54,652 nt of DNA from Dehalococcoidales bacterium (lineage in GTDB: Bacteria; Chloroflexota; Dehalococcoidia; Dehalococcoidales; RBG-16-60-22), in assembly GCA_034420195.1 (NCBI GenBank), contig DAOULO010000050.1, positions 1 through 54,652 on the forward strand, written 5' to 3'. This document shows, piece by piece, positions 13,052 to 47,644 of the stretch; the first letter of the stretch is position 1; every line of letters starts with the position of its first letter. The position numbers and the translations under genes are program-made. The notes under the pieces were generated by a model. The model was not told where the DNA came from and searched no databases. It was given only the letters and a program-made list of their open reading frames with translations.

Positions 13052-13307
13052 GCCCCTCCCCACCGCCCCATTGGAGTTATCTATTCCCACCCTGGCCCGC
13101 TTACGCTAAAGCTTCAGCGGGCAGGCCGCCCTCGGCACGCCAACTGCTTAGCCCGTGGTTTTTCCTTCCCCTTTACCCCCTGGTGGTGTGGGGTAAAATC
13201 ATGGAGATAAGCCAGAAATGCCCCGGGGTGGCCCGCCTCCCGAAGCCTCGTGCGGAGGGCAGGGTTGGGTGGGAAAGTAAATCATCGGGTGGGGTGAGGT
13301 GGGAGGA
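13052..13307. repeat. Composite BIME/MITE-like element (family-A unit plus an inverted diverged unit)
   Basis: The left end is CCCCTCCCCACCGCCCCA..TTATCTATTCCCACCC. The right end is GGGTGGGAAAGTAA..GGGTGGGGTGAGGTGGGAGG, its inverted copy. The whole element is the reverse complement, apart from one indel, of the element at 34069-34291. Confidence 0.8.
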
Positions 13308-13330
13308 GTAGCCCCCTCTGCATCAGGCCT

Positions 13331-14350
13331 TTAGAGCACTGCGTGCAGCAGCCAGGAGAAGAAATACCCCAGCAGCCCGCAGATGGGGAAGGTAAGTATC
13401 CAGGCCGCCACGATGCTGCCGGCCACCCCCCAGCGCACCGCCGAAAAACGCTCGGTGGCCCCCACCCCCATGGTTGACGCGCTGATGAGGTGGGTGGTGC
13501 TCACCGGGATACCGAAATGGGAGGCCACTTCGATAACCGTGGCGGCGGCGGCCTGAGTGGCGAACCCCTGAGTTGGTCGGAGCCTGGTTACTCTCATACC
13601 CATCGTCTTGATAACCCGCCAGCCCCCCAGGGCGGTGCCGGTGCTGATGGCCAGCGCCGGTACGACGATTATCCACCACGTTTCCGGGGATAAGAATGAG
13701 AGCCGGTCCCACAGGCCGGGGTCGCTGTTAAAGACCACCATCGCCATGGTGATAACGCCTATCGGCATCTGGCCATCGTTCTTACCGTGACTGTAGGCCA
13801 TAAAGGCGGTGGTGAGGTATTGCCCCCGGCTGAAGTTCCGGCGCATCCTTTCCGGGGGAGTCCGCCGGAACACCCAGTACAGCAGAATCATGGCCGCAAA
13901 ACCACCGGCGAAGCCGAGTGCCGGCGCGATGATTACCGCCGCCAGAATCTGCCCCATAACACCCCAGACTACGGCCCCGCTCCCGGCCACCGCCATCCCG
14001 GCGGCGGCCAGCCCGGCGATGAAGCCGTGGTGCAGGCTTATGGGCAGGCCCATGTAAGTGGCCAGCGTTCCCCAGATGATAATGGCGATTAAGGCCGCGA
14101 TTACGGTAGGGAAAGATATGGCATCCGCCACCAGAATGCCCTTGCCGATGGTATGGGCTACCGCCGTGCCGGTGCAGGCCCCGGCCATATTGGCCACGGC
14201 GGCGATAATAATGGCGTCCCGGGGTGATATTGAGCGGGCGCCGATGGCCGGGGCGATGGCGTTAGCGGCATCGTTGAAGCCGTTGACGATGGCGAAGCCT
14301 ACGGATAAAAGAACAATCAGGATAAACAGCGGCAGTGAAGTATCAGGCAT
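13331..14350 (-). CDS. Inorganic phosphate transporter, PiT (PHO4) family
   Basis: 339 aa and polytopic, with the duplicated signature GFNDAANAIA ... HGKNDGQ. Confidence 0.92.
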   Translation of the reverse strand: MPDTSLPLFILIVLLSVGFAIVNGFNDAANAIAPAIGARSISPRDAIIIAAVANMAGACTGTAVAHTIGKGILVADAISFPTVIAALIAIIIWGTLATYMGLPISLHHGFIAGLAAAGMAVAGSGAVVWGVMGQILAAVIIAPALGFAGGFAAMILLYWVFRRTPPERMRRNFSRGQYLTTAFMAYSHGKNDGQMPIGVITMAMVVFNSDPGLWDRLSFLSPETWWIIVVPALAISTGTALGGWRVIKTMGMRVTRLRPTQGFATQAAAATVIEVASHFGIPVSTTHLISASTMGVGATERFSAVRWGVAGSIVAAWILTFPICGLLGYFFSWLLHAVL

Positions 14351-39591: not shown

Positions 39592-42500
39592 CTAGATGCG
39601 CCGTATCTTGAGGGCCATGGCCAGGATGACGAGCAGCGCCAAGGTGATGATGAAGAGCAGCCCACCGACGAGGTAGATGGCCCAGCCGGAAATGATAAAG
39701 GAGTTGCCGGGGTCGGGCAAGGAGGTGTCGTCCTGGGCGGGCGGCGGCAGGGCCGACGGCGCTGGCGTTGACGCTGACGACGGCGTGGCGGTGAGGATAA
39801 GGCCGTCCACGGCGGGCGACCTCAGGCTCAGGGCATCGGCGGTTGGCGGAAACTCGGGCGCCGGCGTTTCCTCTGGGGGCGCGGTCGTTTCCGGCGGCGG
39901 TGCCGTGGTGAAGGCGCCCACGGCGCTCCAGATACTCAGCGAGTTATTATTGATGGCCCTGACCTTCCAGTAGTAGGTGGTGGCGTATTCCAGGCCGACG
40001 TCGCACTGCCAGGCATTGCTGGGGAGGGCGTATTCACCCGTCTTGACGATGGCCGGGTGGAGAAAGTCCATGGCCGCGGCCACCAGCAGCTCGTAGGCGG
40101 TGGCCCCGGCGATGGCCGTCCACTGAAAGACCGGTTTCACCGCCACCCCGCTGGCCCCGGCGGGCGGGCTTTCCGGCCGGAGGGCGATGGGCTCGGTATC
40201 CAGGGTGGTGATAAAGGTCTGCGTGGCCGACCAGGGGCTCAGCACCGGGCTGCTGGCTCGCACCCGCCAGCGGTAGGTGGTGTCCGGTTCCAGGGCCGGC
40301 AGGCGGGCGGAGCTGGCGGCGGTGGTCTCCTGAAGCCCGTCGGGGATAGAGGCGAAGCTGGTCCCGGCGGTGCACTGCCACTGGTAGGCGGTGGCCCCCG
40401 GCAGGGTCTCCCAGTCGAGGACGACGTTGCGGATAGTGTGGTCGGTCAGGGTGCCGCCGCCGGTGGTGCCGTCGCCGGGGGAAACGGCCACGACCGGGTC
40501 GGTCAGGGTATCGTTAAAGGTCATCAGCCTGAGGTTGGTAGTATCCACCGACCAGAGGCGGCGGCCCGCCTGCCACAGCCCGGTGAGGGTGGCGTTATCG
40601 GCCAGGCCGCGGGTCACCGTTTCGAAGGTCGGGCCGAGGGGGAAGCTCGGGTTGAGGCAGCGCTCCAGGCCCCCACCGCTGTCGCTGTTGGCGGCGTAGA
40701 GCGTGCCCGTCGGGGATACCTGCAGCCGGTTGAGTTCGGCCCCGGCGGGCAAAGTGCCGTCGATGGCCACCCAGTCGGTGCTGGCGCCGATGACGAAGCG
40801 GGCCACGCCCCCGTCGGCGCTGTCGCTGGCGGCGTAGACGGTGGCGTTTGCGGCGAAGCCGGTATCGAAAGCGACGCTGATGTGGTCGGTAAGCGGCGCG
40901 GCGGCGGCATCTCCCGGCAGGCATTGGAAGGACTCGCCGTTATCGGTAGAATAATAGACCCAGCCGTCGCTGTTGCCGGTAAGGATGGTGCCGTCCTGCG
41001 GGTAGCCGGGGGAGAGGGCGAGGGAGTTGAGGGGCTGGCCGCCGGCCTCGGTCGCGGTGTCGTAGAAGAAGCCGCCATTGTCCGTGCGGTAGACGGTCTG
41101 GTGGCTGGCGACGAAGAGGACGCTGTCGCTGGCGATGGCCCAGGTATCGATGCTGAAGGCGGTGCCGCTAACGGGGTCGTGGGTCAGGCGGCGGCGGAAG
41201 CACTGGCCATCATCCTCGGACTGCCAGAGGGTGGGGCTGCCGTCGCTTTCCCCCGCCGCGAAGACGGTGGCGACACCCGCGCCGTACTGCGGCGGCAGGC
41301 CGACCAAAGTCAGGGTGTCCACCTCACTGAGGTGGCTGGACAGGATGCGCTCCCAGGTGCTGCCGCCGTCCCGGCTGCGCCAGAGGCTGCTATTGCCCCC
41401 GCCGAAGGTAACCATGAAGAGGGTGGTGTCCTGTTCGTAAGCGGGCGAGGGCGCCAGGTCGACGATGGTGCTGATGGCGCCGTCAATCAGCCCCAGCTGG
41501 TTCCAGGTGCCGCCGCCGTCTCGGCTCACCGAAAGGGCGCTGCCGTCGCCGCTGGTGGCGGCGTATATCCGTCCGCTGACGGCGAAATCCGGCGGCATAA
41601 GTGCCACCGTGGCCGACCCGCCGGTCGGCTCTCTCTGGCTCATCGTCCAGGAGGTGCCGCCGTCGCTGCTGAGATAGACCTGGGCGCTCCCGGACGCCCC
41701 GGCCAGAACGGTAGCCGGGTTGCCCCCGCCGGCGGCCAGCCCCCGGATGTCCACATTGGCCTGACCGTAGAGCTGACCGATGTTGAGGTCGATGGCCAGC
41801 GAGGCGGCCGGGGCGTTATTGACGTAGATTTTATACACGTCGCCGGTGCCGGTGCCGGTAGTAATGCCCACGAAGAAATGCCGGATGCCGCCGGGGGTGA
41901 CGGGGTCGTAGCCGCCGGGGAAGGCGACCGCCGCCGGTGAGTCAGCCGCAACGGGAGTGGGCATCCCGGAGTTGTCCCGGTCCAGCCGGGCCGGGCCGAT
42001 GTGGTCGCCCCAGCCGGCATTACCGACTTTACTGGCGACGAAGGTATCGGTCTCGTCGGTGAGGACGGCGGTAAGCTGGCGGTCGTAGTTGTAGCCGGGC
42101 GAGAAGGCCACGGCGCCGACGTCATAATCCCCCACGCCGGTATCCGTCCAGAGCGAGTAGGCATTGGCGGCCTCCAGCGTGTAGACGCCGCCGTACTGGC
42201 CGGCGTCACCGTCGCGGGTGCCGACGGCGATGACATCGCTGCCACCCCAGGCCACCGCCAGCGAGGTGATGACAATATTGCCGCTGCCGGCCCCACCGGG
42301 ATTGGGCGGCAGCCAGGCGAAGGTCTTGCCGCCGTCGCTGGAGCGGTAAACGTCTGAGGCCGTGGCGTAATAGATATTACCGTTATCGCCGGGCGAGACG
42401 GCGATACCGGCGATGTCGTCCTGCACGCCCCCGATGTGCTGCCAGCTGGAGCCGTTATCCACGGAGCGGTAGAGGGTGTAGGTCAGCCCGGCGCAAGCGG

Positions 42501-42771
42501 CGTAAAGGGTGCCGTCGGGGGCGGTCGTCAGGTGGCGGATATCGGAGCCGTCGGCCAGGCCCCAGCCCCCGGCCTCGCCCTGGGTGGGAATGGCGACCCT
42601 TGTCCAGGTAACCGCGTCATCAGCGGCGGCGGGCAGGGCGGGGATAATGGCCCCGAGGCCAAGCAAAGTGATAATCCCGAAGCAAAGGACGTGCCGTCCC
42701 AGGGTGGCTTGGCGGGGGGGCCTGTTCTTTGACACATGGCGAATTCTACTGCTAAATGGTAGGGAAGTCAA
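39592..42771 (-). CDS. Large surface (S-layer-like) protein 1: signal peptide, BNR/Asp-box beta-propeller repeats, two stalk beta-sandwich domains, PT-rich linker, C-terminal TM anchor
   Basis: 1059 aa. The start is uncertain: TTG at 42771 or GTG at 42735, neither with a clear SD. The signal-like segment is LCFGIITLLGLGAIIPALPAAADD. Asp-box motifs are SVDNGSSW, SSDGGKTF, SSDGGTSW, SRDGGGTW, SRDGGSTW and STDNGESF. Two ...AYxW/AYELL...TYRWRVRA/TYYWKVRA...WS..F.T domains follow. The C-terminus is PT-rich, then FIISGWAIYLVGGLLFIITLALLVILAMALKIRRI. Confidence 0.75.
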   Translation of the reverse strand: MTSLPFSSRIRHVSKNRPPRQATLGRHVLCFGIITLLGLGAIIPALPAAADDAVTWTRVAIPTQGEAGGWGLADGSDIRHLTTAPDGTLYAACAGLTYTLYRSVDNGSSWQHIGGVQDDIAGIAVSPGDNGNIYYATASDVYRSSDGGKTFAWLPPNPGGAGSGNIVITSLAVAWGGSDVIAVGTRDGDAGQYGGVYTLEAANAYSLWTDTGVGDYDVGAVAFSPGYNYDRQLTAVLTDETDTFVASKVGNAGWGDHIGPARLDRDNSGMPTPVAADSPAAVAFPGGYDPVTPGGIRHFFVGITTGTGTGDVYKIYVNNAPAASLAIDLNIGQLYGQANVDIRGLAAGGGNPATVLAGASGSAQVYLSSDGGTSWTMSQREPTGGSATVALMPPDFAVSGRIYAATSGDGSALSVSRDGGGTWNQLGLIDGAISTIVDLAPSPAYEQDTTLFMVTFGGGNSSLWRSRDGGSTWERILSSHLSEVDTLTLVGLPPQYGAGVATVFAAGESDGSPTLWQSEDDGQCFRRRLTHDPVSGTAFSIDTWAIASDSVLFVASHQTVYRTDNGGFFYDTATEAGGQPLNSLALSPGYPQDGTILTGNSDGWVYYSTDNGESFQCLPGDAAAAPLTDHISVAFDTGFAANATVYAASDSADGGVARFVIGASTDWVAIDGTLPAGAELNRLQVSPTGTLYAANSDSGGGLERCLNPSFPLGPTFETVTRGLADNATLTGLWQAGRRLWSVDTTNLRLMTFNDTLTDPVVAVSPGDGTTGGGTLTDHTIRNVVLDWETLPGATAYQWQCTAGTSFASIPDGLQETTAASSARLPALEPDTTYRWRVRASSPVLSPWSATQTFITTLDTEPIALRPESPPAGASGVAVKPVFQWTAIAGATAYELLVAAAMDFLHPAIVKTGEYALPSNAWQCDVGLEYATTYYWKVRAINNNSLSIWSAVGAFTTAPPPETTAPPEETPAPEFPPTADALSLRSPAVDGLILTATPSSASTPAPSALPPPAQDDTSLPDPGNSFIISGWAIYLVGGLLFIITLALLVILAMALKIRRI

Positions 42772-42792
42772 TACCTTTGGCGGGGTCTTAAT

Positions 42793-42822
42793 TTGGACAA
42801 ACCGGGGCGGTGATTATATACT
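42793..42822 (+). promoter_or_regulatory. Candidate promoter of moeA
   Basis: TTGGAC (42793-42798), then TATATA/TATACT (42815-42822) after a 16-18 nt spacer. Confidence 0.3.
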
Positions 42823-42855
42823 GGTGTTGAGGAATTTCCCACCGGAGGAGCGACC

Positions 42856-44121
42856 GTGGCGACCGACTTTCAGGAGATTGACGAGGGCACCGGCTACGTG
42901 GGTTTCGCCGCGGCCTTTGACCTGGTCAGTGCCAACGTGGGCACCGTCGGGGTGGAGCCGCTGCCCCTGAGTTCCGCCGCCGGTCGCATCGCCGCCGAAG
43001 ACCTGGTAGCGCGGGTGAGCTATCCCTCCTCCGACGTCTCCCTCAAGGACGGTTTCGCCGTCCGCGCGGCGGACGTGGCCCGCGCCTCCGTCCGGCGGCC
43101 GGTAAGGCTCAAGGTCATCGGCTCGGTCTTCGCCGGTGCCGGGTTTGCCGGGGGGGTGGTGCCGGGCCGCGCCGTCAAGATATACTCCGGCGCGCCGATA
43201 CCGCAGGGGGCGGAGGCGGTGGTATCCGAAGAATTATGCCAGGAATTATCCCCTGACGAGGTGAGTATCCGGGCCGATGCCGGGGTGGGACGGAACGTCC
43301 TCCGCGCCGGGGACGAGGTCAAGGAGGGGGCGGTTATCGTCCGCCGGGGGGAACGGCTGCTCCCCGGTACCCTGGGGCTGGCGGCCGCGGCCGGTATCAG
43401 CCGGGCGAGCGTCTACCGGCGGCCCCGGGTGGCCGTTATCGGCGTCGGTGATGAGGTGGTCGCCCCCGGCCAGGAACTGAGCCCCGGCCAGCTTTACGCC
43501 AGCAACCTGGTCACCATGGCGGCCTGGCTGACTTCCTTCGGCATCTCCAGTACCACCTCCGTGGTCAACGATAACAGCGGCGATATCAAGCGGGAGCTAC
43601 GGAAGCACCGGCCCGCCGCAGATGTCATCCTCACCAGCGGCGGCGCCTGGGGCAGCGAGCGTGACCTCGTCGTCGGGGTGCTGGCCGAGCTCGGCTGGCA
43701 GGAGATATTCCATCACGTGCGCATGGGGCCGGGCAAGGGCATCGCCTTCGGCCTCTGGGAGAGCAAGCCGGTATTCTGTCTGCCGGGCGGGCCGGCCTCT
43801 AACGAGATGGCCTTCCTCCAGCTGGCGCTGCCCGGCGTGCTGCGCCTGGGTGGGGATACCCGTCACCCCCTCCAGACGGTCTCCGCCCGGCTCACCGAGG
43901 GCCTCAAGGGCCGTCACCCCGCCTGGACGGAGTTCAAGGACGCCGTGCTGGCACGGGACGAGGCGGGTAATTATACCGTGGGTCTCTACCGGGGCCGGAG
44001 CCGTCTCCAGGCCATCGCCAGCGCCAACGGCCTTATCTGCATCCCGGAGGGGGCGACGACGCTGCGGCGCGGCAGGATTGTCCCCGTGCAGATTCTGGCA
44101 CCCCGCCCGGACGATATCTAA
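42856..44121 (+). CDS. moeA: Molybdopterin molybdotransferase MoeA
   Basis: 421 aa with a GTG start. The MoeA pattern is ...VSLKDGFAVRAADV...G.AVKI.SGAP.P.GA.AVV..E..., with the MoCF-binding block VAVIGVGDEVV.PG......GQLYASN and ILTSGGAWGSERD. Confidence 0.9.
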   Translation: MATDFQEIDEGTGYVGFAAAFDLVSANVGTVGVEPLPLSSAAGRIAAEDLVARVSYPSSDVSLKDGFAVRAADVARASVRRPVRLKVIGSVFAGAGFAGGVVPGRAVKIYSGAPIPQGAEAVVSEELCQELSPDEVSIRADAGVGRNVLRAGDEVKEGAVIVRRGERLLPGTLGLAAAAGISRASVYRRPRVAVIGVGDEVVAPGQELSPGQLYASNLVTMAAWLTSFGISSTTSVVNDNSGDIKRELRKHRPAADVILTSGGAWGSERDLVVGVLAELGWQEIFHHVRMGPGKGIAFGLWESKPVFCLPGGPASNEMAFLQLALPGVLRLGGDTRHPLQTVSARLTEGLKGRHPAWTEFKDAVLARDEAGNYTVGLYRGRSRLQAIASANGLICIPEGATTLRRGRIVPVQILAPRPDDI

Positions 44122-44171
44122 ACGTAAGTTTACCCCTCCGGCCTTTCCCGGCTGAATTTTCAGGAGAAAGA

Positions 44172-44201
44172 GAGAGCCCCCCGAAATTTCGGGGGGCTCT
44201 C
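44172..44201. terminator. Perfect 30-nt palindrome between convergent moeA and the surface protein 2 gene
   Basis: GAGAGCCCCCCGAAATTTCGGGGGGCTCTC has an 11-13 bp GC-rich stem. No strong T-run follows on either strand. Confidence 0.55.
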
Positions 44202-44242
44202 GAACCTTCCTCAGAAGGCTACGGTATTATCCCTTGTCGTTA

Positions 44243-47200
44243 CTAGACAGAGCGCCTAGTGCGGACAATCAGGATAATGACCGCAATCACCAGTACGGCA
44301 CCGATGACGATTATCACCCAGATGTAGGCCGGGGAAATCTCCTCGGTTGCAGGCGGCTGGAAGGTTACCTGGGTTGCCTGCGGTGCGGGCGGGATGGTAA
44401 TCGTGGGTGCGGGTACCTGCGTGATTACTACCGGAGGTGCAGCGGTCGGAGGTGTTGCCGCGCCAGAACCCGCGACACCAACCGTGGTGAAGGCTACGGT
44501 GGGCGCCCAGGTGTTGTTGGTGCCAGCACCGATGGCCCTTACCGTCCAGTAGTAGGTGGTGTTGTAGTCCAGGGTGTAGACGGCTGCCGTCAGCTTGTAG
44601 GCGTTGACAACACCCAGGGCGTTGGCGCCGGTGAGGTCAACCAGCAGGTTGGTCAACGCGGCGTCGGTGCCCAGCTTGAACTCGTAGCCGGTGGCGCCAG
44701 CGATGCTACCCCACTGGAAGGCGGGGTTGACATCGGCGTCCCAGCCGCCGTAGTTCGTGCCGCCCTCGAACGGGCCGAGGATGACCGGCGAGTTGACAAC
44801 CGCCGCTACCAGCTCGGTGTTGAAGGTGTAGGTCGAGGACCACGGGCCGAACACTGGCCACCGTACTCGTACCTGCCAGTAGACGGTCTGACCGTTGACG
44901 GGCAAGCGGGGGACTGCCAGTGGAGGTAGAGGAGCGGCAGCGATCACGACGACGGTGGGATCGAAGAGGATCGCCGAGTTAACGGGAACAGCCGAGAGGA
45001 AGTCGGCGCGGGTGTCGTAGCGCATCGTGTAGTTCCAGGCACCGGGGACAGCACTGAAGGTGAAGGTGACGGAGGCCTGGGTGTTGTCCACCACGCTGCC
45101 GACCGCCGGGGTGATGCCCGTCGGGGTGGCGGTGCACAGGGTGTCGGTGAAGGTGCGCACCAGGGAAACGTTGCGGGCAACGGCCCAGATGACGTCGCCG
45201 CCCTTGGTCATGACGGTCAGGGTATCACCGACAACGAGCAGGTCACCCCCGGTAACGAGCTCGACCAAGGCCGGGACCGGGACCAGCGGGTCAAGGATGC
45301 GGAGCATACCGCCAGCTATGGGAGTCGAGGCCGTGATGTCGGTGGCGTAGAGTGCGCCGCACGGGTCGGAAAAGATGTCCTGCGGCAACAGGTTGATGCC
45401 ACCGTCAATGGCGAAAACACCCCAGTTGGTGCTGATGCCTATCGTGGCGCGCCAGACGCCGGCCGCACCGTTATCCGCGGCGTAGATGGTGCTGTTGGTG
45501 GCGTAGTTGGTATCGAATTCAACGATACCTGCACCAACGTTACCGCCGGCACCGATGGCCAAACCACCAGCGACCGGGACGTAGCTGATGTTGCCGTTGG
45601 TGGAGAGGTAGACAACGTTGGCGGCCGAGGCGACCAGCAGGTGGCCGGTAGCCGTGTCAACCTTGATTTGGTTGACGGCACCACCAGCCACGATGGGCGT
45701 GGCGGCTACCTGCCAGGTCCAGCCGCCGGTGGTGGTGGACTGAACGTTGGTTGCCGCTGCGCCGCCGACGTAGATGGTGTACTGGTCTCTAACGGCGACA
45801 TCTCCGGGGCCTATCGGGCAGGAGCGTCCGGCCCAGGTGGCGCCGCCGTCGACGGAGATTTGGATGTTACCGGCGACCACTGCGGCGTTGATGTCGGCCA
45901 GGTAGACGGTCATATCCGTCGCGTAGTTGGGGGAGGGTCGGACGATACCGGTATTGCCGGCGAGAACAGCCGAGTATACGCGGTACCAGACAGCGCCGCC
46001 GTCGGTGCTCTTCCAGAGGCTATCCGCGCCACCAGCGCCGTCGTTGGTCAGCATGAAGATTTCGGTGGCGCTGACGGCCTGGATGTCGTTGATGCCGGCG
46101 GGGGCAACGATGAAGGTATCAATGAGGCCGGACTGGTAGAAGTTGGCGCCATTGTTATCGGAGATGGAAACGCCGCTGTTGAGGCCGGTCGTGCCGGCGT
46201 AGATGCGGCTGCTGGTAGCGTAGTCGTTGGCCGGGTAGACGTAGGTGCACTCACCGCCGACAGTAGCGCCGGTGGGCGGAGCCCAGGCGGCCGTGAAGGC
46301 AATGAAGACCGACGCAGGATTGGTCGAAACGTAGACCTGGGTGTTCGCGGCCGCGCCGGCAATCAGGCTGCCGGTGGCGCCCATGCCGACGAAGGCCAGG
46401 CTGGAGAACGTAGCATCGGCCACCAGGGTGGAGGGCTGAATCAGGGTGGGGCCGACCGCCGAGCCGACGGCCAGGCGGTAAAGCCTGTCATCGGGCTGGC
46501 CACTGCGCGCGGCCACGTAGACGGTGCGCGCCAGCGGCTGGCTGCCGTTGAAGTCGGACGGGATGGCCAGCTCAGCAGTGACGATGCCGGTACCAACCCC
46601 GCCAACATCAAGGATGGCGCCGGTCGGCGTGGCAATGGCCACGGCCGCGCCGATGGTGGCATCCCAGGCGGCGCCGGTGACCAGGGTGTGCACCGCGGTG
46701 CGCGCCGCCGTGGAGGCGACGCAGATGAGGGTGGCGTCAATGGGGAAGTTGGGCGAGTACATCACATCGGTGACATCCTCAGTACCGGCGAAGACAGCAT
46801 CGTAGCTTGCCCAGTTCTGCACGCCGCCGCGGCCCCAGATGAGGACATCGGGAAGAGCCGCGACACCGGCGAGCGGGTCGGCCAGGCCAAGGGCTATCTC
46901 GCCGACGCCGGCGTTATAGTTGGGAGAAACGGCCACCGAGGTGGCCAAGAGGCCAGCACCCCCGGTCCCGCCGAGGACGGCGAAAGTCGCACCCCAGTTG
47001 GTGGAGATGTAGACCTGAGCTAAGGGGGCGACGGTATTGCCCGCCACGATAACGGTGCCGTCAGTCGCGTAGCTGGGCGAAATCTCCAGGTCCACGATGT
47101 TGGCGGGAATCGCCACCGAGGGTATCCAGGTGACACCGCCGTCAATCGAGCGGTAGACGACGTCGGCCGCGGCCGGGTTGGTGTCGACGGCTAAGATATC

Positions 47201-47401
47201 GCCGTTGGGCGCTACCTTCACGAATGAGGCGTCAACACCAAGTGTTGCTGCTGTGAAGATCTGGAAGGTCAGAGGACTGGGGATTGCCTGAGTCGACCAG
47301 GCCAGCGTGGCGGCCGAGGCCGGTAAGGCTATGACGAGAAGACTGGCCAGCAGTATCAGCGCCAGACCAACGCCACAAAGTTTAACTAGTCTTTTTTTCA
47401 T
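44243..47401 (-). CDS. Large surface (S-layer-like) protein 2, paralogous in architecture to 39592-42771
   Basis: 1052 aa. The ATG follows AGGAGGAAAT. The signal peptide is MKKRLVKLCGVGLALILLASLLVIALPASAA. Asp-box motifs are SIDGGVTW, STNWGATF, SDNNGANF, STDGGAVW and SVDGGATW. Two stalk domains follow (...GQTVYWQVRV..GPWS..YTF.T; ...FQWGSIAGATGYEFKL...TTYYWTVRA...W...VAFTT). Then come a PT-rich linker, a TM helix (AYIWVIIVIGAVLVIAVIILIV) and RTRRSV. Confidence 0.8.
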   Translation of the reverse strand: MKKRLVKLCGVGLALILLASLLVIALPASAATLAWSTQAIPSPLTFQIFTAATLGVDASFVKVAPNGDILAVDTNPAAADVVYRSIDGGVTWIPSVAIPANIVDLEISPSYATDGTVIVAGNTVAPLAQVYISTNWGATFAVLGGTGGAGLLATSVAVSPNYNAGVGEIALGLADPLAGVAALPDVLIWGRGGVQNWASYDAVFAGTEDVTDVMYSPNFPIDATLICVASTAARTAVHTLVTGAAWDATIGAAVAIATPTGAILDVGGVGTGIVTAELAIPSDFNGSQPLARTVYVAARSGQPDDRLYRLAVGSAVGPTLIQPSTLVADATFSSLAFVGMGATGSLIAGAAANTQVYVSTNPASVFIAFTAAWAPPTGATVGGECTYVYPANDYATSSRIYAGTTGLNSGVSISDNNGANFYQSGLIDTFIVAPAGINDIQAVSATEIFMLTNDGAGGADSLWKSTDGGAVWYRVYSAVLAGNTGIVRPSPNYATDMTVYLADINAAVVAGNIQISVDGGATWAGRSCPIGPGDVAVRDQYTIYVGGAAATNVQSTTTGGWTWQVAATPIVAGGAVNQIKVDTATGHLLVASAANVVYLSTNGNISYVPVAGGLAIGAGGNVGAGIVEFDTNYATNSTIYAADNGAAGVWRATIGISTNWGVFAIDGGINLLPQDIFSDPCGALYATDITASTPIAGGMLRILDPLVPVPALVELVTGGDLLVVGDTLTVMTKGGDVIWAVARNVSLVRTFTDTLCTATPTGITPAVGSVVDNTQASVTFTFSAVPGAWNYTMRYDTRADFLSAVPVNSAILFDPTVVVIAAAPLPPLAVPRLPVNGQTVYWQVRVRWPVFGPWSSTYTFNTELVAAVVNSPVILGPFEGGTNYGGWDADVNPAFQWGSIAGATGYEFKLGTDAALTNLLVDLTGANALGVVNAYKLTAAVYTLDYNTTYYWTVRAIGAGTNNTWAPTVAFTTVGVAGSGAATPPTAAPPVVITQVPAPTITIPPAPQATQVTFQPPATEEISPAYIWVIIVIGAVLVIAVIILIVRTRRSV

Positions 47402-47616
47402 CGACCTTTAATTTCCTCCTATGTAAGTTTAGGTCTTTTAGGTCTTATGCCATATCCCCCCAAACAGCTACAAGATTCCTAGCGCTGTTCGCGGAGATAT
47501 ATTACCTTGGGTTTTCTTGGCGGAGCCCCTGGCTCCGTTCGCCCCAGCGGGCTGCGGACATACCACCACCTCCTTTCGAGGCATACCTTAAACAAAGTAT
47601 ACCAAATATCATAATA

Positions 47617-47644
47617 ACTATAGCATAAACCAGCGGTTTGTCAA
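47617..47644 (-). promoter_or_regulatory. Candidate strong promoter of surface protein 2, implying a 5' leader of about 200 nt
   Basis: On the minus strand, TTGACA (47644-47639), a 16-nt spacer ending in TGC, and TATAGT (47622-47617). It sits in a 420-bp AT-rich intergenic region. Confidence 0.4.

Follow-up and report, generated by a model that had tools for sequence, protein, structure and literature searches.

The stretch of DNA analysed here (the window) is contig DAOULO010000050.1, positions 1-54,652, from the 1.71-Mb, 96%-complete genome of a Dehalococcoidales bacterium (GCA_034420195.1). Our subject is a pair of large genes in it at 39592-47401, P1 and P2, which encode putative surface-layer (S-layer) proteins. 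As an initial annotation made from the DNA letters had described, the two are paralogues that flank a moeA gene, both on the minus strand. Their products are colinear, with 28% identity across the full length (about 1050 residues; E 9e-54), and are the only two members of the family in the genome. Both open reading frames (ORFs) are evidently real genes, given their GC content at third codon positions (GC3; 0.87 in P1, 0.79 in P2) and their database homologues, which for P1 are numerous and well conserved (more than 600, 50-76% identity) and for P2 fewer and divergent (78, at most 46%). The genes and the domains of their products are as follows.

39592-42771, minus strand: P1 as the mechanical ORF, 1059 codons counted from TTG
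39592-42735, minus strand: P1 as corrected, 1047 amino acids (aa) from GTG 42735; clade B of the family tree
P1, minus strand: signal peptide, aa 1-38; tandem propellers, about aa 39-745; two FN3-like domains, about aa 746-945
P1, minus strand: Pro/Thr linker, about aa 946-1012; transmembrane (TM) helix with KIRRI tail, aa 1013-1047
42856-44121, plus strand: moeA-family molybdopterin molybdotransferase gene, between the P2 terminator and the P1 promoter
44243-47401, minus strand: P2, 1052 aa (codons) from ATG; DET1407-type with canonical anchor; clade C of the family tree
P2, minus strand: signal peptide, aa 1-30; tandem propellers, about aa 31-755; two FN3-like domains, about aa 756-975
P2, minus strand: Pro/Thr linker, about aa 976-1020; TM helix with RTRR tail, aa 1021-1052

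The layout that the initial annotation had ascribed to both proteins, with a signal peptide, Asp-box propellers, two beta domains, a Pro/Thr linker, a TM helix and a basic tail, is borne out in each. The hydrophobic N-terminal signal sequences have an AxA site (ending AAA/DD in P1 and ASA/AT in P2), and Asp-box matches number eight in P1 and five, degenerate, in P2. Two FN3/immunoglobulin (Ig)-like domains per protein (Pfam Pur_ac_phosph_N, Ig_Rha78A_N and fn3) are followed by a disordered or low-confidence Pro/Thr linker of about 45-65 residues and then by one C-terminal helix with RTRR (P2) or KIRR (P1). Both proteins are acidic (isoelectric point about 4.3), poor in lysine, cysteine and methionine and rich in alanine, threonine, glycine and valine. 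AlphaFold2 models of P2 (predicted local distance difference test score 82, predicted template modelling score 0.76) and P1 (80 and 0.71) support tandem propellers and two FN3-like domains, with about 720 residues of beta-propeller in about 50 strands. The top PDB matches of both models in Foldseek are all tandem seven-bladed propellers, namely GH74 enzymes, Bacteroides hybrid two-component system (HTCS) sensor domains, Aip1 and PorZ. Strand number and PDB matches, rather than a direct blade count, point to a predicted head of two propellers with seven blades each.

The anchors of the two proteins differ. That of P2, SPAYIWVIIVIGAVLVIAVIILIVRTRRSV, fits the canonical pattern [ST]P.[YW][IV]W.I..IGA.L.I.VIVLIVRTRR, while that of P1, SGWAIYLVGGLLFIITLALLVILAMALKIRRI, departs from it and is the clade-B anchor with consensus (P/S)GW.IYL.GGLL...KIRR. 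Neither protein has a Pfam match to SLH domains, and with a TM helix as anchor an SLH-anchored bacterial S-layer protein, bound to a pyruvylated cell-wall polymer, was rejected. N-glycosylation sequons are not enriched in the two proteins (observed 6 and 7, expected 5.7 and 7.4). Two other large secreted proteins of the same genome, of 821 aa (C73:6988-9453, plus strand; tail …ASWWWIVIGAG…STRRQS) and 624 aa (C65:162-2036, minus strand; tail …PTWATILLIVIGVIVV…RVGRR), also end in a Pro/Thr linker or FN3-like part, a W-rich motif, a TM helix and a basic tail. The stalk-and-anchor design thus seems to be used by further envelope proteins.

The precedent named in the initial annotation, an abundant putative S-layer protein of Dehalococcoides, is real. 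DET1407 is the published putative S-layer protein of Dehalococcoides mccartyi 195. It ranks 6th in the proteome of that strain (PMC6646388, supplementary table S1), and its transcript follows growth and the reductive dehalogenase genes, with a tight link to ftsZ and to the main dehalogenase (PMC5102406). The DET1407-type family has no Pfam or NCBIfam model of its own, and word-based protein searches that started from P2, P1 or a Dehalogenimonas homologue listed no D. mccartyi protein. The link came from a profile search of whole genomes alone. A family profile (A1) built on P2, P1 and relatives and searched in 301 Dehalococcoidia genomes matched three 1.4-1.5-Mb single-contig genomes of one Dehalococcoides-like genus, with one full-length match in each. 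In one of them (G133; contig of 1,469,720 bp) an ORF of 1001 aa contains three published DET1407 peptides, YFGNQWNQTALCK, AGIIPAPTTASDAYK and VAYGTTTGTETTATTLK, and matches the profile over positions 2-992 (E 1.2e-148).

In BLASTP, P1 aligns with DET1407 end to end (26% identity, E 7e-44), and P2 aligns over its final 166 residues only (37%), that is, the last FN3 domain and the anchor. The P2 anchor is nearly letter-identical to that of DET1407 (PAYIW.I..IGAVL.IAVI.LIVRTRR), in a form also common to Dehalogenimonas proteins. Judged by sequence, DET1407 is a full-length member of the P1/P2 family, with the same architecture from end to end and likewise in a host without peptidoglycan. The settings differ in that the host of DET1407 has a single copy and no P1-type partner, as seen in the three Dehalococcoides-like genomes, while the organism of the window comes from another family of the order and has a high GC content of about 62%. 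Two uncharacterised proteins match DET1407 in abundance in the proteome of D. mccartyi 195, DET0040 at rank 5 and the very large DET0754 at rank 8 (125 distinct peptides; PMC6646388), and could be further envelope components.

A lineage without peptidoglycan, as the initial annotation had assumed, is supported by the gene content. Models for FtsW/RodA, penicillin-binding protein transpeptidase and MurG found no match in the genome of the window, and control genomes were positive. Across the 301 genomes, FtsW/RodA is lacking in 49 of the 51 with a full-length family member versus 125 of the 250 without one (Fisher p = 4e-11, for genomes that are related and so are not independent samples). In the two exceptions among the 51, the family matches do not extend into the last FN3 domain or the anchor. 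The association across the class is in line with published work (PMC10284905) that places a single peptidoglycan-gene loss in the ancestor shared by Dehalococcoidales and the marine radiation.

A tree of 68 members, made quickly with LG+G4 on a fast alignment so that its deep branching should not be over-read, has three well-supported clades, A, B and C, joined at an unresolved node. Clade A holds DET1407, one Dehalogenimonas copy and one copy each from genomes G227, G241 and G014. Clade B holds P1 and its homologues, including the second copies of Dehalogenimonas, G267, G198, G227, G241 and G014, and clade C holds P2, a few divergent homologues and the other copies of G267 and G198. Most genomes of the order have one B copy together with one A or C copy, and the Dehalococcoides-like genus has A only. 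Clades A and C have in common the canonical anchor and the start region AGGAG(G)..AAAGGTCGATG and, in two families, a TTGACA...TATAGT promoter about 210 nt upstream. Because of these common features P2 may be read as the DET1407-type copy, on the basis of anchor, start-region motif and gene position, and P1 as another paralogue of long standing. Two copies, one with a canonical and one with a divergent anchor, are likewise found in most of the genomes that carry the family in other orders of the class. The pair appears to be old, both types having been present together before the order divided into its families.

Gene order is consistent with such an age. In G198, G227, G241 and G014 the two genes stand in tandem on one strand, the A/C type first, and the short spacer holds a strong terminator hairpin followed directly by a B-gene promoter, TTGACT-17/18-TA(G/A)AAT. 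The hairpins after the P2-type gene in G198, G227 and G014 are near-identical in sequence to that of the window (44201-44172), and G241 has a strong hairpin of another sequence at the same position. With a terminator and a promoter between the genes, the pair is two transcription units in fixed order and not an operon, and the ancestral layout is read as a tandem of P2-type gene, terminator, promoter and P1-type gene.

In the window the moeA gene lies on the opposite strand exactly between the P2 terminator and the P1 promoter, and the order hisS, P2-type, moeA, P1-type, tautomerase, FMN reductase is kept in the relatives L025, L026 and L028. In more distant relatives the paralogues are directly tandem, with moeA present in 0 of 22 loci. 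As it is absent from all of these, moeA is most simply a lineage-specific insertion and a passenger, and a role as conserved functional partner, for which only the close relatives would speak, was rejected. Its product has the Pfam domains MoeA_N, MoCF_biosynth and MoeA_C. The top NCBIfam match is 'molybdotransferase-like divisome protein Glp' (267 bits), with true MoeA models at 259 bits and all under their cut-offs; such scores do not separate molybdenum cofactor synthesis from a gephyrin-like role.

The expression signals of the two genes, all on the minus strand, are listed here.

47644-47617, minus strand: P2 promoter, TTGACA-16-TGcTATAGT, in the P2 upstream region 47402-47644
47402-47610, minus strand: P2 leader (5' untranslated region) of about 210 nt, with blocks conserved relative to L025
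47420-47415, minus strand: P2 Shine-Dalgarno (SD) sequence AGGAGG, 13 nt before the ATG
44172-44201, minus strand: P2 intrinsic terminator, GAGAGCCCCCCGAAATTTCGGGGGGCTCTC with T-rich tail
42743-42771, minus strand: P1 promoter, TTGACT-17-TAGAAT, conserved in L025, L028 and four other families of the order

The promoter, parts of the leader and the SD sequence of P2 are conserved in L025 although the proteins are only 43% identical, and in other families of the order a promoter spacing of 208 nt and the AAAGGTCGATG start context are seen again. The consensus ribosome-binding site of the initial annotation was thus found, while the leader is half as long as the roughly 420 bp given there. Within it a conserved internal SD and ATG (AAGGAGGTG.TG..ATG) open a short ORF of 19 codons in one relative and 25 in another, and a conserved hairpin, GGAGCC..GCTCC (GGAGCCAGG..GCTCC), lies downstream of them. 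As the nucleotides are conserved and the peptide is not, this short ORF suggests an RNA element or a regulatory upstream ORF. Riboswitches upstream of the Dehalococcoides S-layer gene are mentioned in the literature; for the P2 leader Rfam gave no match, and no known riboswitch was found there.

The codon usage of P2 had also been taken as a sign of very high expression, and this argument fails. The ribosomal-protein genes and tuf have a GC3 of 0.81-0.89, equal to that of the genome, with fusA and atpD in the same range; codon choice is under very weak selection, and in resemblance to the highly expressed set P2 comes 949th of 1164.

For P1, the TTG at 42771 with which the mechanical ORF begins is part of the -35 box of the promoter. 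The GTG at 42735 agrees with the database record P0082 (1047 aa) and with relatives, so that the length in the initial annotation stands for P2 (1052 aa) and has to be shortened from 1059 to 1047 aa for P1. That annotation had also seen no promoter for P1, where in fact a strongly conserved one is present, letter-for-letter the same in L025 and L028 while the remaining intergenic DNA drifts. Nine B-type genes, drawn from several families of the order, were found to have the promoter, and in 8 of the 9 the start codon (ATG or GTG) stands 5-7 nt past the -10 box without an SD sequence. As the start codon sits where transcription should begin and no SD sequence precedes it, the P1-type mRNA is probably leaderless. 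Shortly past the P1 start, in the signal-peptide region (42700-42712, minus strand), there is a run of seven C (GGCCCCCCCGCC), at which slippage could turn P1 off. L025 is read in a shifted frame at the conserved CCATGTG start region, with the ATG in use and not the GTG that lies 2 nt further on; relatives thus do not agree in their N-terminal frame.

The two genes differ in how fast they change. Between the genome of the window and L025, identity is 77% for MoeA, 76% for HisS, 74% for the FMN reductase, 61% for P1 and 43% for P2, and the N-terminal 200 or so residues of P2 cannot be aligned. Conservation in the P2 clade peaks in the TM anchor (74%, versus 36-48% for the ectodomains), and ectodomains in the P1 clade are 53-63% identical. 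A fast-changing exposed head on a fixed anchor fits what may be the outermost protein of the cell surface under diversifying pressure. The initial annotation had gone further and suggested variant or conditional S-layer expression, for example as an evasion of phage. As a recent duplication such variation is not supported: the pair is old, occurs in most genomes of the order and has copies that differ in rate and anchor, and the rate pattern of P2 by itself does not show phage evasion.

Given the above, we consider it likely that P1 and P2 are S-layer-type wall proteins of a cell without peptidoglycan, P2 probably the major exposed subunit and P1 a second envelope component, which may co-assemble with P2, decorate the layer or stand in for P2 under some conditions. 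P2 evolves fast, is driven by a strong promoter that is itself conserved, and is framed by a long leader with an SD sequence and a terminator; P1 can be described as an old, slower-evolving paralogue with a conserved promoter of its own. From its architecture, each protein would be exported by Sec and its N-terminal signal peptide removed, the C-terminal helix would remain in the membrane, held by the positive-inside RTRR or KIRR tail, and the Pro/Thr linker with two FN3-like domains would form a stalk. Following the DET1407 precedent, the double-propeller heads may then tile sideways above the membrane into a wall of protein in place of peptidoglycan. The analysis itself shows the homology, the architecture, the anchor signatures, the gene order, the conserved signals and the lack of matches to peptidoglycan markers; that the proteins form a lattice, are abundant, work as partners and, for P1, are translated without a leader is what we infer from these features.

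Several observations weigh against this interpretation. The S-layer role of DET1407 is itself based on abundance and annotation rather than on a solved lattice, and the codon usage of P2 carries no sign of very high expression. The DET1407-, P1- and P2-type clades form an unresolved trifurcation. The three sampled Dehalococcoides-like genomes have no P1-type copy, so that P1 is dispensable for the wall there, and half of the FtsW-less Dehalococcoidia are without the full-length family, which therefore is not the sole solution for a wall.

Among other explanations, P1 and P2 might be alternative S-layers, made one at a time according to growth phase, oxygen or phage pressure. The adjacent sap and eag genes of Bacillus anthracis and SbsA/SbsB of Geobacillus could serve as models by analogy. 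Identical architecture means that either protein could in principle take the same place, and they are separate transcription units with differing signals, a long SD-bearing leader in one and a probably leaderless start in the other, with a strong terminator between. Since the two types have coexisted from before the family split with differing rates and anchors, distinct roles fit better than interchangeable ones, and signals of inversion or recombination were not seen, no search having been aimed at them; we regard alternation as unlikely. That they are instead surface enzymes or glycan-binding receptors (GH74-like xyloglucanase or sialidase-like BNR proteins), anchored in the membrane to capture polymers rather than to build a wall, we hold to be improbable. 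GH74 xyloglucanases (5FKT, 2CN2, 5JWZ), likewise tandem seven-bladed Asp-box propellers, are the nearest solved structures by sequence profile and fold, there are weak NCBIfam matches to the 'F510_1955 family glycosylhydrolase', and the Joint Genome Institute calls relatives Ycf48-like. All enzyme-family scores are nevertheless sub-threshold (F510_1955, 84.6 and 22.6 against a cut-off of 175; BNR_2, 26.6 against 31.4), and TM-scores to GH74 are only about 0.3, with the propellers differently oriented and an FN3 stalk, linker and TM anchor added. In 65 members the conserved columns are all structural (Asp-box S/G/W, SP motifs, FN3 core), with no conserved acidic pair in the propellers; the sole invariant acidic residue sits where the second propeller joins the first FN3 domain, in the motif TF.DTL. 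This test used family-wide conservation and did not map catalytic residues one by one, as local alignments miss them. The family is moreover kept in Dehalococcoides, an obligate organohalide respirer, among its most abundant proteins, and its distribution follows the loss of peptidoglycan genes. A GH74 glycoside hydrolase, which has a pair of catalytic Asp residues in the cleft between its propellers, was rejected on the missing acidic pair and the sub-threshold score.

Profile searches upheld no other enzyme or sortilin identity. A sialidase or BNR neuraminidase, which has a single six-bladed propeller with a catalytic Arg triad and a Tyr/Glu nucleophile, does not fit proteins whose best matches are tandem propellers and whose BNR_2 score is below the cut-off, and none of its catalytic residues is among the family-wide conserved columns. 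P1 exceeds the cut-off of the sortilin model PF15902 (66 against 33 bits; P2, 12.9 bits), but in short stretches only, one of which pairs aa 99-152 with positions 2-58 of the 446 in the model. Sortilin/VPS10 (ten-bladed, with 10CC) was rejected, the P1 match being one of Asp-box similarity without a Cys-rich module. Highly improbable, in our view, is that the C-terminal tails are exosortase or archaeosortase sorting signals and are cut, leaving a lipid-anchored or released protein like the PGF-CTERM S-layer glycoprotein of Haloferax. The tail is indeed tripartite (a Pro-containing motif, TM helix and basic cluster) and unusually conserved in the P2/DET1407 type, and the genome encodes exosortase H (XrtH; TIGR04177, 94.4 bits, cut-off 86). 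XrtH, however, adjoins its likely substrate, a 1097-aa beta-helix protein that ends in IPGLTSWG, a TM helix and RRRR and is the sole such protein in the genome. The signal for XrtH we take, from its NCBIfam naming, to be IPTLxxWG, and P1 and P2 lack a motif of the IPGLTSWG type. They match no NCBIfam CTERM model, no sortase was found in the genome, and 13 complete or near-complete relatives that keep the P1- and P2-type anchors, the Dehalococcoides- and Dehalogenimonas-like ones included, have no gene of the exosortase/archaeosortase family. With XrtH paired to another protein and 13 relatives without the enzyme, sorting of the P1 and P2 tails was rejected, and they are best read as putative retained TM anchors.

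The S-layer interpretation is the best supported of these. A more specific and quite tentative form of it, which we think possible but less than even in its chances, is a conserved two-gene module as the source of the wall in Dehalococcoidales without peptidoglycan, in which a fast, leader-driven DET1407-type protein and a slow, leaderless paralogue co-assemble into one TM-anchored S-layer in archaeal style. The nearly invariant TM helix of the major subunit would make an intramembrane contact with itself or with a membrane partner, and Dehalococcoides would be a secondarily simplified case with one subunit. Two-protein S-layers encoded by adjacent genes are known in Tannerella forsythia (TfsA/TfsB) and the Sulfolobales (SlaA/SlaB), where adjacent genes for large surface proteins likewise serve one envelope layer. 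P1 and P2 differ from these in being paralogues of identical architecture, each with its own anchor and transcription unit, and in that their co-assembly is only proposed. Like P1 and P2, archaeal S-layers anchor by a C-terminal TM helix on a stalk and not by SLH domains on a cell-wall polymer. A surface-layer protein of Methanosarcina mazei, reportedly described by Jing et al. in 2002 with a YVTN beta-propeller and a PKD domain (PDB 1L0Q), also has a seven-bladed propeller head followed by Ig-like domains. It differs in being archaeal and in having YVTN rather than Asp-box repeats, and the likeness is one of layout and not of established homology.

Aquifers, sediments and oceans harbour abundant Dehalococcoidia, among them the key organohalide-respiring bacteria of bioremediation. 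Many have no peptidoglycan, and what their wall is made of has been known only as 'a putative S-layer protein' of one genus. That the DET1407-type family is in the literature as such is not new. New are the membership of P1 and P2 in the DET1407 family, its class-wide link to the loss of peptidoglycan genes and the anchor signatures, as well as the old pair of one fast and one conserved gene whose terminator-promoter junction is fixed, the partner's probably leaderless start and the lineage-specific insertion of moeA. The family is class-wide, its presence follows peptidoglycan-gene loss, and its build of double propeller, FN3 stalk and TM anchor is archaeal rather than bacterial in style. Most relatives have a conserved partner that studies of Dehalococcoides, with its single copy, could not see, and the expression signals of the pair, the probable leaderless start included, are very well conserved. 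The pair offers targets for structural work (cryo-electron tomography, subunit assignment), strain-resolving proteomic biomarkers and a model for how protein may replace murein in a bacterium.

Two further observations concern neighbouring genes and the exosortase. In the relative L027 a heliorhodopsin gene (13125-13898) lies about 9 kb from the P1-type gene; being common to the window and L027, heliorhodopsin is part of the neighbourhood and syntenic across the family. The XrtH genes are at C117:17996-21913 of the genome (locus L029:3468-7908), together with a weak match to an XrtH-associated membrane protein. The secreted beta-helix protein is encoded directly upstream of XrtH, and the whole, absent from the 13 related genomes, looks like a sorting system with one substrate.

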